DNA of 64,000 nt. It comes from Escherichia coli. Lineage in GTDB: Bacteria > Pseudomonadota > Gammaproteobacteria > Enterobacterales > Enterobacteriaceae. This document shows positions 1 to 61,774 of this stretch, in pieces (the first letter of the stretch is position 1; the number at the start of each line of letters is the position of its first letter). The translations under genes and the position numbers were made by a program. The notes beneath the pieces are model-generated. The model had not been told where the DNA came from and made no database searches. It saw only the letters and a program-made list of their open reading frames with translations. The stretch is taken from assembly GCF_017348835.2 (NCBI RefSeq), contig NZ_CP071375.1. One strand, 5' to 3'.

Positions 1-569
<569 letters not shown>

Positions 570-585
570 TTTCTTGCGTTATTTT

Positions 586-612
586 CGGCACCTTTTATGT
601 AGCGAAGGTGCC
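586..612 (+). terminator. stem-loop just downstream of cysB stop (CGGCACCTT...AAGGTGCCG)
   Basis: 9-bp inverted repeat with 9-nt loop; weak U-tract. Confidence 0.3.
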
Positions 613-899
613 GGAATATATTCTCTTTTGTTACTTATTTGTATACCGTGCACAATATTTTTATCCCTCATATTTATAGGGTAAATTACCTATAAAGTAG
701 TGTCTAATTACCCGCCTCGCAAATTCCAGTTTTCAAATATCTATTTCAGGTCAAAAGATTGAATTATTCACTGGAGACGATTCGTAAATTCGCTGGATTT
801 TTGACTAAAGTTTCTTTAGGATTTGTCTCATCGTATGATTAATTACACCAATCGTTCAACGTCTTGCTGATAAGTGATGGCGATTATATGAGGTTAGCA

Positions 900-1028
900 A
901 TGCCTTCTGGAAATCAGGAACCCCGCCGCGATCCTGAATTAAAACGTAAAGCCTGGCTGGCGGTTTTTCTTGGTTCTGCACTTTTCTGGGTGGTTGTCGC
1001 ACTGCTGATTTGGAAAGTGTGGGGATAA
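900..1028 (+). CDS. ymiA: small membrane protein YmiA (42 aa)
   Basis: ATG at 900, TAA at 1026-1028; hydrophobic core LAVFLGSALFWVVVALLIW; remembered K-12 position upstream of yciX. Confidence 0.7.
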   Translation: MPSGNQEPRRDPELKRKAWLAVFLGSALFWVVVALLIWKVWG

Positions 1029-1030
1029 CT

Positions 1031-1198
1031 ATGGTTGGTCAGGAGCAACTGGAGTCGTCACCATTATGCCAGGATAGTGACAATGAACCAGAAACGAAAC
1101 GGGAATGTTCCGTCGTTATTCCAGACGACTGGCAACTAACATCGCAGCAGCAAGCCTTTATAGAACTGTTTGCTGAAGATGATCAGCCGAAACAATAA
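1031..1198 (+). CDS. yciX: small protein YciX (55 aa from MVGQ start; ORF track offers alternative start at 1010)
   Basis: ORF track 1010..1198; ATG at 1031 lies 2 nt after ymiA stop, suggesting translational coupling. Confidence 0.65.
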   Translation: MVGQEQLESSPLCQDSDNEPETKRECSVVIPDDWQLTSQQQAFIELFAEDDQPKQ

Positions 1199-1311
1199 TT
1201 ATCATCATTCTTATTACCCATTTTTAATGAATTAAAGGGCTTTTAATACACCGCAGCAATAACAGGTTGAGTTATCTCAACACAAAGTAATAACCGTTAA
1301 GGGTGTAGCCT

Positions 1312-1407
1312 ATGATCAACACAAATATGAAATATTGGTCCTGGATGGGCGCGTTTTCTCTGTCGATGCTCTTCTGGGCCGAACTCCTCTGGATCATTAC
1401 TCACTGA
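1312..1407 (+). CDS. candidate small hydrophobic protein (31 aa, MINTNMKYWSWMGAFSLSMLFWAELLWIITH); possibly a ymi-family small protein
   Basis: ATG with AAGGG upstream; single predicted TM-like segment; followed 7 nt later by an intrinsic terminator; not in ORF track (below length cutoff). Confidence 0.4.
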   Translation: MINTNMKYWSWMGAFSLSMLFWAELLWIITH

Positions 1408-1413
1408 TCCCTG

Positions 1414-1434
1414 ACCCCGCTTCGGCGGGGTTTT
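1414..1434 (+). terminator. rho-independent terminator (ACCCCGC-TTCG-GCGGGGT + TTTT)
   Basis: GC-rich 7-bp stem, tetraloop, U-tract; sits between yciX/small ORF and acnA promoter. Confidence 0.55.
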
Positions 1435-1570
1435 CATTTGCTTTGCCACAAGCTTTCTCCTCTTTTATCAATTTGGGTTGTTATCAAATCGTTACGAGAT
1501 GTTTGTGTTATCTTTAATATTCACCCTGAAGAGAATCAGGGCTTCGCAACCCTGTCATTAAGGAGGAGCT

Positions 1571-4246
1571 ATGTCGTCAACCCTACGAGAAGCCAGTAAG
1601 GACACGTTGCAGGCCAAAGATAAAACTTACCACTACTACAGCCTGCCGCTTGCTGCCAAATCACTGGGCGATATCACCCGTCTACCCAAGTCACTCAAAG
1701 TTTTGCTCGAAAACCTGCTGCGCTGGCAGGATGGTAACTCGGTTACCGAAGAGGATATCCACGCGCTGGCGGGATGGCTGAAAAATGCCCATGCTGACCG
1801 TGAAATTGCCTACCGCCCGGCAAGGGTGCTGATGCAGGACTTTACCGGCGTACCTGCCGTTGTTGATCTCGCTGCAATGCGCGAAGCGGTTAAACGCCTC
1901 GGCGGCGATACTGCAAAGGTTAACCCGCTCTCACCGGTCGACCTGGTCATTGACCACTCGGTGACCGTCGATCGTTTTGGTGATGATGAGGCATTTGAAG
2001 AAAACGTACGCCTGGAAATGGAGCGCAACCACGAACGTTATGTGTTCCTGAAATGGGGAAAGCAGGCGTTCAGTCGGTTTAGCGTCGTGCCGCCAGGCAC
2101 AGGCATTTGCCATCAGGTTAACCTCGAATATCTCGGCAAAGCAGTGTGGAGCGAATTGCAGGACGGTGAATGGATTGCTTATCCGGATACACTCGTTGGT
2201 ACTGACTCGCACACCACTATGATCAACGGCCTTGGCGTGCTGGGGTGGGGCGTGGGTGGCATCGAAGCAGAAGCCGCAATGTTAGGCCAGCCGGTTTCCA
2301 TGCTTATCCCGGACGTAGTGGGCTTTAAACTTACCGGAAAATTACGTGAAGGTATTACCGCCACAGACCTGGTTCTCACTGTTACCCAAATGCTGCGCAA
2401 ACATGGCGTGGTGGGGAAATTCGTCGAATTTTATGGTGATGGTCTGGATTCACTACCGTTGGCGGATCGCGCCACCATTGCCAATATGTCGCCAGAATAT
2501 GGTGCCACCTGTGGCTTCTTCCCGATCGATGCTGTAACCCTCGATTACATGCGTTTAAGCGGGCGCAGCGAAGATCAGGTCGAGTTGGTCGAAAAATATG
2601 CCAAAGCGCAGGGCATGTGGCGTAACCCGGGCGATGAACCGATTTTTACCAGTACGTTAGAACTGGATATGAATGACGTTGAAGCGAGCCTGGCAGGGCC
2701 TAAACGCCCACAGGATCGCGTTGCACTGCCCGATGTACCAAAAGCATTTGCCGCCAGTAACGAACTGGAAGTGAATGCCACGCATAAAGATCGCCAGCCG
2801 GTCGATTATGTTATGAACGGACATCAGTATCAGTTACCTGATGGCGCTGTGGTCATTGCTGCGATAACCTCGTGCACCAACACCTCTAACCCAAGTGTGC
2901 TGATGGCCGCAGGCTTGCTGGCGAAAAAAGCCGTAACTCTTGGCCTCAAGCGGCAACCGTGGGTCAAAGCGTCGCTGGCACCGGGTTCGAAAGTCGTTTC
3001 TGATTATCTGGCAAAAGCGAAACTGACACCGTATCTCGACGAACTGGGGTTTAACCTTGTGGGATACGGTTGTACCACCTGTATTGGTAACTCTGGGCCG
3101 CTGCCCGATCCTATCGAAACGGCAATCAAAAAAGGCGATTTAACCGTCGGTGCAGTGCTGTCCGGCAACCGTAACTTTGAAGGCCGTATCCATCCGCTGG
3201 TTAAAACTAACTGGCTGGCCTCGCCGCCGCTGGTGGTTGCCTATGCGCTGGCGGGAAATATGAATATCAACCTGGCTTCTGAGCCTATTGGTCATGATCG
3301 TAAAGGCGATCCGGTTTATCTGAAAGATATCTGGCCATCGGCACAAGAAATTGCCCGTGCGGTAGAACAAGTCTCCACAGAAATGTTCCGCAAAGAGTAC
3401 GCAGAAGTTTTTGAAGGCACAGCAGAGTGGAAGGAAATTAACGTCACACGATCCGATACCTACGGCTGGCAGGAGGATTCAACCTATATTCGCTTATCGC
3501 CTTTCTTTGATGAAATGCAGGCAACACCAGCACCCGTGGAAGATATTCACGGTGCACGGATCCTCGCAATGCTGGGGGATTCAGTCACCACTGACCATAT
3601 CTCTCCGGCGGGCAGTATTAAGCCCGACAGCCCGGCAGGTCGATATCTACAAGGTCGGGGTGTTGAGCGGAAAGACTTTAACTCCTACGGTTCGCGGCGT
3701 GGTAACCATGAAGTGATGATGCGCGGCACCTTCGCCAATATTCGCATCCGTAATGAAATGGTGCCTGGCGTTGAAGGGGGGATGACGCGGCATTTACCTG
3801 ACAGCGACGTAGTCTCTATCTATGATGCCGCGATGCGCTATAAGCAGGAGCAAACGCCGCTGGCGGTGATTGCCGGGAAAGAGTATGGATCAGGCTCCAG
3901 CCGTGACTGGGCGGCAAAAGGTCCGCGTCTGCTTGGTATTCGTGTGGTGATTGCCGAATCGTTTGAACGAATTCACCGTTCGAATTTAATTGGCATGGGC
4001 ATCCTGCCGCTGGAATTTCCGCAAGGCGTAACGCGTAAAACGTTAGGGCTAACCGGGGAAGAGAAGATTGATATTGGCGATCTGCAAAACCTACAACCCG
4101 GCGCGACGGTTCCGGTGACGCTTACGCGCGCGGATGGTAGCCAGGAAGTCGTACCCTGCCGTTGTCGTATCGACACCGCGACGGAGTTGACCTACTACCA
4201 GAACGACGGCATTTTGCATTATGTCATTCGTAATATGTTGAAGTAA
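1571..4246 (+). CDS. acnA: aconitate hydratase A (891 aa)
   Basis: full-length ORF with AGGAGG RBS; aconitase family sequence recognised (e.g. [15 protein letters not shown]). Confidence 0.97.
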
Positions 4247-32460: not shown

Positions 32461-33879
32461 CTATGCGTTTTTCAACATCCACTCAATTTCTGTTTCTGTG
32501 ATGAGGCGCTCAAACTGCAACAGCTCATCATTTTTACAGGCGTGATAGACATGGCAAAACCGTTCGCCTAAATAGCGGCGCAGGTGATCATTCTCGATAA
32601 ACTCACCCAGGGCATCGCTCTGGCGAATCGGGAAGGGTAAGCCATCCTGTTCCAGCCCGTTGCCTTCGACTTCTTCCTGCAACGGCAGCTCGTTATCAAG
32701 ACCGTGCAAAATACCGGCAAAAATCGCTGCCATCACCAGATATGGGTTGGCATCGGCACCCGCCACGCGATATTCCACGCGGTGATTATGGCGATCGCCG
32801 CATGGAATACGCAGGGCGACGGTGCGGTTGTTATGGCCCCACGACGCCTGCGTCGGTACATACATCCCCGGCTGGAAGCGGCGATACGAGTTCACGTTTG
32901 GTGCCAGCAACGCCATTGATGACGGCATCAGATCGATCATTCCGGCGAGCATTTTTTTCAGCAGCGGCGAATCTTCGCCTTCCGCGTCAGAAAGCACGTT
33001 CTCGCCACGATTATTTTGCATACTGATATGGATATGCATCCCGCTGCCCGCGTGCTCTTCATACGGCTTCGCCATAAAAGTGGCGTGCATCTTATGCTTT
33101 TCTGCCATCAGACGCACCAGGCGTTTTAGTGCCAGCGCATCATCGCAGGCTTCCAGCACGTTATCGGTATGGTAAAGATTGATTTCAAACTGACCCGGCG
33201 AGGCCTCAGCGACCGCGCCATCTGCCGGAATCAGCTGTAACTGCGCCAGTTCATCAATATCATTGAGCACGTCGGCGAAGTGATTGAGGTTATCAACGGA
33301 GTAAACCTGGCTTTGTGTATTGCGGTCATCGGTGCCGGGCGCGCAGGGCGGTTGCAGATACCCTTCAGCGTCACGCTGGCGATCCAGTAAATAGAACTCC
33401 AGCTCTACCGCTACGACCGGAAACAATCCGCGCTGGCGCAGCTGCTGCCACAGGCGGTTAAGAACGTTCCGCGGCTCAACGTCAAAGGGAGCGCCATCTT
33501 CATCGACCATGGTCAGGAGCATCTGACCGATAAACTCTGGATCGGCGGCAGAAGGGGTTAAGGAACCGAGAACAGGAACACAGGTACGATCCGGCTCGCC
33601 CATTTCCTGACCCAGACCTGCTTCTTCTACTACGTTGCCCAGAATATCCATTGCAAACACCGAGGCCGGGAAATAACATCCTTTCTCGAGCTTCTTCAGG
33701 CTTGAAACAGGAATACGTTTTCCACGGAAGCAACCATTCAAATCGGTAAGTAAAACATCAACATATTGCGTATTCGGGTAGCGCTCCAGGTAGCGTTTCA
33801 CTTCCTGCGTAAAGGCGCTACCCCGCCTCTCTTCTGACTGCTGAACAAAGTTCTCTACTTCAACGATATTGGTTTCCAT
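32461..33879 (-). CDS. puuA: gamma-glutamylputrescine synthetase PuuA (472 aa from METNIVEV start; ORF track extends to 33957)
   Basis: glutamine synthetase-family sequence. Confidence 0.95.
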   Translation of the reverse strand: METNIVEVENFVQQSEERRGSAFTQEVKRYLERYPNTQYVDVLLTDLNGCFRGKRIPVSSLKKLEKGCYFPASVFAMDILGNVVEEAGLGQEMGEPDRTCVPVLGSLTPSAADPEFIGQMLLTMVDEDGAPFDVEPRNVLNRLWQQLRQRGLFPVVAVELEFYLLDRQRDAEGYLQPPCAPGTDDRNTQSQVYSVDNLNHFADVLNDIDELAQLQLIPADGAVAEASPGQFEINLYHTDNVLEACDDALALKRLVRLMAEKHKMHATFMAKPYEEHAGSGMHIHISMQNNRGENVLSDAEGEDSPLLKKMLAGMIDLMPSSMALLAPNVNSYRRFQPGMYVPTQASWGHNNRTVALRIPCGDRHNHRVEYRVAGADANPYLVMAAIFAGILHGLDNELPLQEEVEGNGLEQDGLPFPIRQSDALGEFIENDHLRRYLGERFCHVYHACKNDELLQFERLITETEIEWMLKNA

Positions 33880-33952
33880 GATTCTTCGCCTTTGGTTTGT
33901 TTTCCGCTCGTTATCAAAGCGTAAAATATAATGACCACCATTCGAATCTGTA

Positions 33953-33992
33953 TGCAAACTAAATGTTTGTCAAATGTTAAATTGAGTTTGCA
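33953..33992. promoter_or_regulatory. AT-rich divergent puuA/puuD control region with inverted repeat TGCAAACT...AGTTTGCA and AAATGTT direct repeats; candidate PuuR operator region
   Basis: 8-bp inverted repeat separated by 24 nt, centred in the 211-bp divergent intergenic region. Confidence 0.3.
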
Positions 33993-34090
33993 AAAATGAA
34001 AATCCACTGCTAGATTGAAAAAATATTGAACATAAAGGTCATTTAAACCGCAGTAATGGCGATAATTTAGTCCACTTAGTGAGATTGAGC

Positions 34091-34855
34091 ATGGAAAATA
34101 TAATGAACAATCCGGTTATCGGTGTCGTAATGTGCAGGAACAGGCTTAAGGGGCATGCGACCCAGACTCTGCAAGAAAAGTACCTGAATGCCATCATCCA
34201 TGCAGGCGGCTTGCCAATTGCGTTACCACATGCGCTGGCGGAACCGTCCTTACTTGAACAACTTTTGCCGAAACTCGATGGCATTTATCTTCCTGGTAGT
34301 CCCAGCAATGTGCAGCCGCACCTATATGGTGAAAACGGCGATGAGCCTGACGCCGATCCCGGGCGTGATCTTCTGAGCATGGCGTTAATTAATGCCGCAC
34401 TCGAAAGGCGCATCCCCATTTTCGCCATCTGCCGGGGGTTACAGGAACTGGTGGTGGCAACCGGTGGTTCGTTGCATCGCAAGCTGTGCGAACAGCCTGA
34501 ATTGCTGGAACATCGGGAAGATCCCGAACTGCCGGTGGAACAGCAATATGCGCCGTCGCACGAAGTTCAGGTTGAAGAGGGGGGATTACTGTCTGCATTG
34601 TTACCTGAATGTAGCAACTTTTGGGTAAACTCTCTGCATGGACAAGGGGCGAAGGTCGTTAGCCCGCAGTTGCGTGTTGAAGCTCGCTCGCCGGATGGCC
34701 TGGTTGAGGCGGTGAGCGTCATCAATCATCCTTTCGCGCTGGGCGTACAGTGGCACCCGGAATGGAACAGTAGCGAGTACGCGCTTTCGCGTATATTGTT
34801 CGAGGGCTTTATCACCGCTTGTCAGCACCATATCGCTGAAAAACAGCGACTCTGA
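34091..34855 (+). CDS. puuD: gamma-glutamyl-GABA hydrolase PuuD (254 aa from MENIMNN start)
   Basis: class I glutamine amidotransferase-like with catalytic Cys motif (AICRG). Confidence 0.93.
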   Translation: MENIMNNPVIGVVMCRNRLKGHATQTLQEKYLNAIIHAGGLPIALPHALAEPSLLEQLLPKLDGIYLPGSPSNVQPHLYGENGDEPDADPGRDLLSMALINAALERRIPIFAICRGLQELVVATGGSLHRKLCEQPELLEHREDPELPVEQQYAPSHEVQVEEGGLLSALLPECSNFWVNSLHGQGAKVVSPQLRVEARSPDGLVEAVSVINHPFALGVQWHPEWNSSEYALSRILFEGFITACQHHIAEKQRL

Positions 34856-34881: not shown

Positions 34882-35439
34882 ATGAGTGATGAGGGACTGG
34901 CGCCAGGAAAACGCTTGTCGGAAATCCGCCAGCAGCAGGGGCTTTCACAACGTCGTGCCGCCGAACTCTCCGGGCTGACTCACAGTGCTATCAGTACGAT
35001 AGAACAGGATAAAGTCAGCCCTGCCATCAGTACGCTGCAAAAGCTGCTGAAGGTGTATGGTCTGTCACTCTCGGAATTCTTTTCCGAGCCGGAAAAACCT
35101 GATGAGCCGCAGGTCGTCATTAATCAGGACGATTTAATTGAGATGGGCAGTCAGGGTGTGTCAATGAAGCTGGTTCATAACGGTAACCCGAATCGCACGC
35201 TGGCGATGATCTTTGAAACGTACCAGCCTGGCACAACCACTGGGGAAAGAATTAAGCATCAGGGTGAGGAAATAGGCACTGTACTGGAAGGTGAAATTGT
35301 TCTGACGATTAATGGTCAGGATTACCACCTCGTCGCGGGGCAAAGTTATGCCATTAATACCGGCATCCCGCACAGTTTCAGTAATACGTCGGCAGGTATT
35401 TGCCGAATTATCAGCGCCCATACGCCCACCACGTTTTAA
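34882..35439 (+). CDS. puuR: HTH-type repressor PuuR (185 aa), XRE HTH plus cupin domain
   Basis: N-terminal HTH (LSQRRAAELSGLTHSAISTIEQ); C-terminal cupin. Confidence 0.93.
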   Translation: MSDEGLAPGKRLSEIRQQQGLSQRRAAELSGLTHSAISTIEQDKVSPAISTLQKLLKVYGLSLSEFFSEPEKPDEPQVVINQDDLIEMGSQGVSMKLVHNGNPNRTLAMIFETYQPGTTTGERIKHQGEEIGTVLEGEIVLTINGQDYHLVAGQSYAINTGIPHSFSNTSAGICRIISAHTPTTF

Positions 35440-61666: not shown

Positions 61667-61774
61667 GATTATCTTTCCTGTTTACATATAGTTAACGTCA
61701 CACCTAGTTTATGCTAACTGTCAATAACACAGCAAACGCTATTTGCGCTTAATCCGCAGACCACCGCGACAACA

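Follow-up and report, generated by a model that had tools for sequence, protein, structure and literature searches.

The repeats between the divergent puuA and puuD genes of Escherichia coli coincide with a published ArcA site and with mapped and probable promoter -35 elements

The inverted and direct repeats at the centre of the spacer between the divergent puuA and puuD genes of E. coli are a published binding site for the oxygen-response regulator ArcA together with the puuD -35 element and, probably, that of puuA, and belong to oxygen/redox control. The puuA/puuD control region is an ordinary regulatory region that is already known. As to the spacer as a whole, we consider it likely that it is a compact, back-to-back promoter pair under two separate repressors, in which the repeats represent the ArcA site and the -35 elements, and the boxes for the repressor PuuR lie apart from them. 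All positions given below refer to the window, meaning the entire 64,000-nucleotide stretch of DNA that was analysed. The genes concerned are as follows:

32461 to 33879, minus strand: puuA coding sequence (glutamate-putrescine ligase), from the annotation of the 100% identical record NZ_CP114128; Pfam Gln-synt_C, E = 3e-106.
34091 to 34855, plus strand: puuD coding sequence (gamma-glutamyl-GABA hydrolase), from the annotation in an identical E. coli record; Pfam Peptidase_C26, E = 7e-70.
34882 to 35439, plus strand: puuR coding sequence, specifying the putrescine-responsive repressor with an XRE-type HTH and a cupin domain, from the annotation; Pfam HTH_3, E = 6e-15, and Cupin_2, E = 6e-19.

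The gene for the repressor, puuR, lies just downstream of puuD. The initial annotation described an AT-rich spacer of 211 bp between the divergent puuA and puuD genes, and this description is accurate, as positions 33880-34090 are 66% A+T (G+C 0.336). The puu stretch is 100% identical to annotated E. coli chromosomes. Compared to K-12 MG1655, 3 of 241 positions differ across the spacer and its edges, none of which falls in a repeat or a conserved block, and published K-12 experiments therefore transfer directly to the window. Coordinates were converted by subtracting 1325053 from the U00096.2 coordinate, or 1327029 from that of NC_000913.3. The puuA-puuD stretch (window 33600-34400) is present in 4371 of 5426 complete E. 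coli genomes, and the acnA region (window 300-1800) in 5422. About one in five sequenced E. coli strains thus seems to lack the puu locus or to carry a strongly diverged form of it.

Both kinds of repeat reported in the initial annotation are indeed present. The 8-bp inverted repeat consists of TGCAAACT (33953-33960) and AGTTTGCA (33985-33992), which are perfectly complementary and 24 nt apart; a repeat search extended it to arms of 12 nt, complementary at 11/12 positions and separated by 16 nt. The AAATGTT direct repeats occupy 33961-33967 and 33972-33978, 11 bp from start to start. Chance expectation was measured using dinucleotide-preserving shuffles of the 211-bp spacer. Perfect inverted repeats with arms of 8 nt or more and loops no longer than 60 nt were found in 542 of 2000 shuffles (27%), while a pair of 12-nt arms with no more than 1 mismatch was found in 41 of 1000 (4.1%). 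Likewise, a direct repeat of at least 7 nt arose in 1311 of 2000 shuffles (66%) when any spacing from 7 to 60 was allowed, and in 109 of 2000 (5.5%) when the spacing was restricted to 10-12. The repeats are unremarkable by composition alone. Since the shuffles yield similar repeats, their significance comes from conservation and published experiments, not from statistics.

With respect to published experiments, the following 2 features are central:

33952 to 33994, plus strand: binding site for phosphorylated ArcA (ArcA-P) with four direct repeats (DR1 at 33952, DR2 at 33963, DR3 at 33974 and DR4 at 33985), containing every one of the repeats described above.
33963 to 33980, plus strand: core 18-bp ArcA box ATGTTTGTCAAATGTTAA, holding both AAATGTT copies at 11-bp spacing.

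Table S4 of Park 2013 (PMC3798270) gives a 43-bp site with four repeats, ATGCAAACTAAATGTTTGTCAAATGTTAAATTGAGTTTGCAAA, for 'puuD/puuA' at K-12 coordinates 1359005-1359047. This sequence equals window positions 33952-33994 base for base. The scores reported for DR1 through DR4 were 2.6, 2.7, 11.7 and 1.4 bits, respectively, the site was placed at -70 to -28 of the puuD start, and Table S3 of the same study lists an 18-bp ArcA box for 'puuD/puuA', atgtttgtcaaatgttaa, at 14 bits. A ChIP peak in that work indicates that phosphorylated ArcA occupies the puuD/puuA region in vivo under anaerobic conditions. Moreover, deletion of arcA de-repressed puuA 15.3-fold and puuDR 10.6-fold, and sigma-70 occupancy at both promoters dropped anaerobically (Park 2013, Tables S1, S5 and S6 in addition to S3 and S4). 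In vivo occupancy and ArcA-dependence of the flanking genes are accordingly documented in the literature, and K-12 and the window are the same over the site. ArcA binding at puu is based on ChIP, which has a resolution of tens of bp, together with a weight matrix. When an independent ArcA matrix was built from 114 other published boxes, with that of puuD left out, positions 33963-33980 scored 14.2 bits and ranked 4 of ~128,000 window positions. These positions carry two TGTTA-type direct repeats, 11 bp apart from centre to centre, and exceed the 9-bit threshold for an ArcA box. In terms of the published array, the left arm of the inverted repeat corresponds to DR1 and the right arm to DR4, and the AAATGTT copies supply the cores of DR2 and DR3. 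These copies contain the two TGTT(T/A) cores of the 18-bp ArcA box, which are spaced by 11 bp.

Conservation of the site was assessed by scanning one genome per species, which provided 41 enterobacterial loci in which puuA and puuD are likewise divergent, with spacers of 205-239 bp, from Escherichia, Klebsiella, Raoultella, Citrobacter, Enterobacter, Cedecea, Buttiauxella, Pluralibacter, Yokenella, Franconibacter, Hafnia, Erwinia and Serratia, among others. In all 42 sequences (the window and its 41 orthologues) the 18-bp ArcA box scored at least 9.9 bits, and the distance from DR2 to DR3 was 11 bp, again in 42 of 42. TGTTT of DR2 and TGTTA of DR3 were at least 90% conserved. The outer repeats behaved differently with the 7-mer ArcA matrix: DR4 scored ~0 bits in all species, and in about 10 species the score of DR1 was -8 to -17 bits; as an ArcA repeat, DR1 lacks conservation. 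As neither outer repeat is maintained in ArcA-like form in other genera, both may be promoter elements instead of genuine ArcA repeats.

The same 114-box matrix detected ArcA-like sequences elsewhere in the window. Its strongest two matches in the window, at 628-645 (plus strand, TTGTTACTTATTTGTATA, 17.5 bits) and 1478-1495 (plus strand, TTGTTATCAAATCGTTAC, 18.5 bits), lie within the cysB / ymiA-yciX-ymiC / acnA intergenic stretch; acnA is listed as ArcA-repressed in Table S5 of Park 2013 (PMC3798270). A further ArcA-like 18-mer, TCGTTATCAAAGCGTAAA, at 33908-33925 (plus strand, 13.0 bits, rank 6) falls in the presumed puuA leader, where it adjoins PuuR box 1 (described below). This match may be due to chance, the stretch being variable outside Escherichia. 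Finally, ACGTTAACTATATGTAAA at 61681-61698 (minus strand, 17.5 bits) is the ycjG/tpx ArcA box of Park 2013, which was part of the training set and serves as a positive control for coordinate mapping only.

The arms of the inverted repeat coincide with mapped (puuD) or candidate (puuA) promoter positions, as summarized in the following features:

34023, plus strand: puuD transcription start site (TSS), from two independent maps.
33985 to 33992, plus strand: right arm AGTTTGCA, overlapping the puuD -35 hexamer TTGCAA (33988-33993) and the weak ArcA repeat DR4.
34008 to 34016, plus strand: puuD extended -10 element TGcTAGATT, at -15 to -7 of the TSS and 17 nt from the -35 hexamer.
33953 to 33960, minus strand: left arm TGCAAACT, in which TTGCAT on the minus strand (33957 to 33952) is a candidate puuA -35 hexamer; overlaps the weak ArcA repeat DR1.

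The supplement of Kim 2012 places the puuD TSS at 1359076 with a 5' UTR of 68 nt, and Mendoza-Vargas 2009 mapped the start of ycjL (= puuD) to -68 using directed 5' RACE. Relative to the start at 34023, TTGCAA (33988-33993) spans -35 to -30, and is followed by a 17-nt spacer and TAGATT (34011-34016) with TG upstream. Mendoza-Vargas 2009 gives aattGAGTTTGCAaaaa as the -35 box and cactGCTAGATTgaaa as the -10 box of ycjL, and the published puuD -35 box, GAGTTTGCA, is the right arm itself. The distance from TTG to the -10 element of the puuD promoter was invariant in 42 of 42 sequences. Both GTTTG of the puuD -35 and CTGCTAGATT of the extended -10 were at least 90% conserved, the latter across 40 distinct orthologue sequences. 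In addition, a SELEX peak for the sigma-S RNA polymerase holoenzyme at K-12 1359040 corresponds to window position 33987, the same spot as the puuD -35. The right arm is the -35 element of puuD.

On the opposite strand, TTGCAT is separated from CATTAT (33933 to 33928) by an 18-nt spacer in the puuA direction, and the only well-conserved part of the left arm is CAA at 33955-33957, which reads TTG on the puuA strand. Based on this geometry and the conserved CAA, the left arm is probably the puuA -35 element. Table S6 of Park 2013 (PMC3798270) lists 'no TSS' for puuA, and a puuA TSS was likewise not found in the accessible text of the supplements of Kim 2012 and Mendoza-Vargas 2009, the Klebsiella orthologue included. 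A promoter and terminator consensus scan of 33850-34130 returned no promoter at 9/12 or more matches and no terminator-like site. The candidate -35 and -10 hexamers of both promoters match the consensus poorly; that of puuD, with 8/12 matches, was mapped nonetheless. The Kim 2012 supplement also includes a TSS within puuD upstream of puuR at K-12 1359392 (window ~34339, plus strand, position approximate), as well as a puuP TSS with a 146-nt leader at K-12 1357357 (window ~32304, minus strand, approximate), which lies in or near ymjE.

Comparison across species distinguished the -35 cores from the symmetry that surrounds them. Perfect 8/8 complementarity of the arms is confined to the window, a second E. 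coli and an E. coli-like 'Pseudocitrobacter' record. In E. albertii complementarity is 7/8, and it drops to 3-4/8 in Serratia, Pluralibacter and Cedecea. Compensatory changes are essentially lacking, and retention is limited to the CAA...TTG core. Since the symmetry decays without compensation while CAA...TTG is kept, the inverted repeat has not been selected as a dyad. Its symmetry is probably the appearance of two diverging -35 hexamers, of which that of puuA is a candidate placed by position and sequence. The arrangement of the core is rigid. Between 33955 and 34018 there were zero indels in 42 sequences, and PuuR boxes 1 and 2 (see below) are separated by 95 bp in 38 of the 42. In Serratia spp. 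(L027-L031, L035, L036, L041 and L045) a conserved insertion, GTCTGTGGTTCTCACACTTATTG, which lies in the puuA leader before box 1 is reached from the start of puuA, lengthens the spacers by ~25 nt; the core from box 1 to box 2 retains its spacing.

The spacer and the adjoining start of puuD also contain a stronger repeat family that was absent from the initial annotation, namely the 15-mers AAAATATAATGACCA at 33923, AAAAAATATTGAACA at 34018 and AAAATATAATGAACA at 34095. No other 15-mer in the 64 kb comes within 2 mismatches of the 15-bp PuuR consensus AAAATATAATGAACA, which we take to be that of Nemoto 2012; this consensus occurs exactly at 34095-34109. A full-text literature search for the AAAATATAATGAACA consensus found no paper. 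We trained a 15-nt PuuR matrix solely on the non-Escherichia copies of boxes 1 and 2. With this matrix, positions 34095, 33923 and 34018 held ranks 1-3 of ~128,000 positions in the 64-kb window at 21.5-21.7 bits, and the next match scored 18.4. The putative operators are as follows:

33920 to 33937, plus strand: PuuR-type operator 1 (box 1), CGTAAAATATAATGACCA; core 33923-33937, 21.6 bits, rank 2, 1 mismatch to the presumed consensus.
34015 to 34032, plus strand: PuuR-type operator 2 (box 2), TTGAAAAAATATTGAACA; core 34018-34032, 21.5 bits, rank 3.
34092 to 34109, plus strand: PuuR-type operator over the first puuD codons, TGGAAAATATAATGAACA; core 34095-34109, 21.7 bits, rank 1, never in the training set.
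34057 to 34074, plus strand: probable fourth PuuR operator, TGGCGATAATTTAGTCCA, at +35 to +52 within the puuD leader.

Operator 1 overlaps the candidate puuA -10 region, and operator 2 is centred on the puuD +1. At least 90% conservation was observed for AATATAATG and CCAC in box 1, for AAATA and TGAAC in box 2, for ATAATTT in the block at 34057-34074 (block 4) and for AATATA in the box at the puuD start. Each PuuR-type box also scores on the opposite strand with an offset of 3 nt, which points to an imperfect dyad of 18 bp. When an 18-bp dyad (half-site) model was trained on the other three boxes only, 34057-34074 ranked 5th of ~64,000 positions with 12.2 bits, and its orthologues scored 9.1-16.6 bits. 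The E. coli copy of this block scores poorly with the 15-mer matrix (<2 bits), and 36 of the 42 sequences have a median of 8.35 bits. Taking these scores together with its conserved motif, 34057-34074 is probably the fourth PuuR operator. A different candidate for that role, the inverted half-box GGTCATT at 34037-34043, was rejected; its dyad-model score was -8 bits, and its conservation is limited to Escherichia, Klebsiella and Raoultella. Motif, conservation, position and the presumed consensus together suggest that the PuuR-type boxes are a repeat family of their own, flanking the repeats originally described on both sides.

Among more distant loci, Kiloniella spp. (L056, L059, L061-L064; alphaproteobacterial) have a divergent pair of puuA-like and puuD-like genes with PuuR-box-like 15-mers, TAAATAAAATGAACA and TCAATATAACGAACA, between them at ~2690-2845. 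No PuuR homologue was detected within 3 kb of the Kiloniella loci. The distant puuD loci of Pseudomonas, Rhodobacteraceae and others displayed no PuuR-type boxes.

The initial annotation expected the operators of PuuR in this spacer, and PuuR motifs do lie there: PMC9951944, citing Nemoto 2012, states that the puuA-puuD spacer has four PuuR DNA-binding motifs, and the boxes described above fall within or at the edge of it. The repeats that had been pointed out as possible PuuR sites are, however, very probably not PuuR boxes. The PuuR-type boxes map outside of them, to 33920-33937, 34015-34032, 34057-34074 and 34092-34109, which is the outcome that the initial annotation had named as contrary to its idea. 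Scanning the repeats themselves with the PuuR motif yielded 0.5 bits at best, compared to 21.5-21.7 for the boxes, and the closest match to the consensus there has 5 mismatches.

We considered whether the inverted repeat, the AAATGTT repeats, or both, might nevertheless be operators for PuuR. XRE-type HTH repressors usually bind dyads; moreover, PuuR does bind within this spacer, and a broad PuuR footprint might extend to the central repeats. This explanation is very unlikely given that another, far stronger family matches the presumed consensus exactly or within 1-2 mismatches and sits on promoter -10/+1 positions, whereas the central repeats reach no more than 0.5 bits with the PuuR motif, have a full explanation in the published ArcA site and the mapped -35 element, and lose their symmetry across species without compensation. 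The loss of perfect symmetry outside E. coli-type sequences, again with no compensatory changes, also counts against the inverted repeat serving as the dyad operator of a different dimeric regulator, such as FNR or ArgR. In favour of such a regulator, a review states that FNR and ArcA sites in the spacer were described by Partridge 2006; an ArgR site predicted by Mendoza-Vargas 2009 from a matrix only, CATTTAGTTTGCATACAGATTC, is the reverse complement of 33943-33964 (minus strand) and covers the left arm; and 12-nt arms with 1 mismatch arise in only 4.1% of shuffles. The sequence itself offers little to FNR, as there is no TTGAT-N4-ATCAA: the best matches, at 33869, 33904 and 33960, reach 7/10, no better than background (the 64 kb hold 315 such sites), and the arms are 24 nt apart, not 4. 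The distance between the arms (24 nt, or 16 nt if the longer arms are taken) is unfit for a CRP site as well as for FNR, consensus scans for FNR, CRP and sigma-54 revealed nothing above background, and Park 2013 (PMC3798270) reports little direct co-regulation by ArcA and FNR. We regard an operator for another dimeric regulator as unlikely.

The inverted repeat could also be read as a nucleic-acid hairpin, either an attenuator or terminator in RNA or a cruciform in DNA, and as single-stranded DNA it folds at -6.8 kcal/mol with a z-score of -2.5. The repeat lies upstream of both the mapped puuD TSS at 34023 and any plausible puuA start, however, meaning that it is transcribed from neither promoter; its stem is A+T-rich with a loop of 16 nt, it shows no covariation, and no terminator-like site is present. 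An Rfam scan produced only a sub-threshold match, to a CRISPR-repeat (E = 0.54). With the inverted repeat upstream of the TSS and the fold weak, we rejected the hairpin, which is exceedingly improbable. That leaves chance similarity in A+T-rich DNA, with the repeats having no meaning of their own, as the shuffles might suggest (27% for an 8-nt inverted repeat; 66% for a 7-nt direct repeat at any spacing). Such an account can apply only to the inverted-repeat symmetry itself. TGTTT, TGTTA and GTTTG are at least 90% conserved without indels, the sequences match experimentally defined elements, and for the direct repeats and the right arm chance is already refuted by conservation together with the ChIP and TSS data. 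As an explanation for the repeats overall, chance is therefore highly improbable.

According to the mechanism that we propose for the ArcA site and the -35 elements, an ArcA-P array lying across both -35 hexamers would shut the puuA and puuD promoters by occlusion, the 'inverted repeat' corresponding to the two diverging -35 hexamers, 33 bp apart. PuuR would bind separate, imperfect dyads of ~18 bp with the 15-bp core AAAATATAATGAACA, at 33920-33937 (puuA -10 region), 34015-34032 (puuD +1), probably 34057-34074 (leader) and 34092-34109 (first puuD codons). From these positions it would block RNA polymerase at the -10/+1 of each promoter until released by putrescine; secondary sources, including PMC9951944, state that PuuR leaves the DNA upon binding putrescine. 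Operators 1 and 2, being 95 bp (about 9 helical turns) apart, might permit cooperative looping. The core with its two repressors is without a single indel over 63 bp across Enterobacterales. The complete arrangement, in which a diverging -35 pair is silenced by one ArcA-P array plus four 18-bp PuuR dyads (half-site ~TGKWMAWTA), with a loop between operators 1 and 2 that encloses the ArcA site, is offered tentatively, as a possibility rather than an expectation. The facts concerning ArcA and PuuR are known; new, though modest in extent, would be the redefinition of the operators as 18-bp dyads, the looping geometry and a fourth site in the leader of puuD.

The puu spacer would represent a textbook-grade case of two signals, redox via ArcA and substrate via PuuR, acting through separate operators on one divergent promoter pair. 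In terms of annotation, the central repeats should be labelled as an ArcA site and -35 elements, not as PuuR boxes. Anyone building putrescine biosensors from the spacer takes over its ArcA site together with the PuuR boxes, and the simple motif derived here should allow PuuR boxes to be found in any enterobacterial genome. Beyond correct annotation, the importance of these results is small.

Three known systems invite comparison. The first comprises back-to-back divergent sigma-70/sigma-S promoters with a shared central repressor site. The puu region resembles these in that the puuD promoter is mapped, a SELEX peak coincides with it at 33987 and the spacing is rigid across genera, whereas the puuA promoter is a candidate only and both promoters match the consensus poorly (8/12 for puuD). 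The PuuR operators of Nemoto et al. 2012 (J Bacteriol 194:3437) share with the present case both their locus and the gene of the repressor (XRE-HTH/cupin, released by putrescine), and the four motifs that PMC9951944 states for the spacer are matched here by three boxes and a probable fourth. The consensus that we take to be theirs is exact at 34095-34109 and has 1-2 mismatches at 33923 and 34018; the 18-bp dyad and the assignment of 34057-34074 as the fourth site are proposals of the present work. With respect to the multi-direct-repeat sites at which ArcA-P acts as a repressor (Park et al. 2013, PLoS Genet 9:e1003839), the 43-bp sequence is the same and nothing differs. Both have TGTTA-type repeats 11 bp from centre to centre and four predicted repeats, the puu site overlaps sigma-70 promoter elements like most repressing ArcA sites, and ArcA-dependent repression has been measured for both puu operons. 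What the present analysis adds to that account is that the outer, weak repeats are mutually inverted and coincide with the TTG cores of the puuD -35 element and its puuA candidate.
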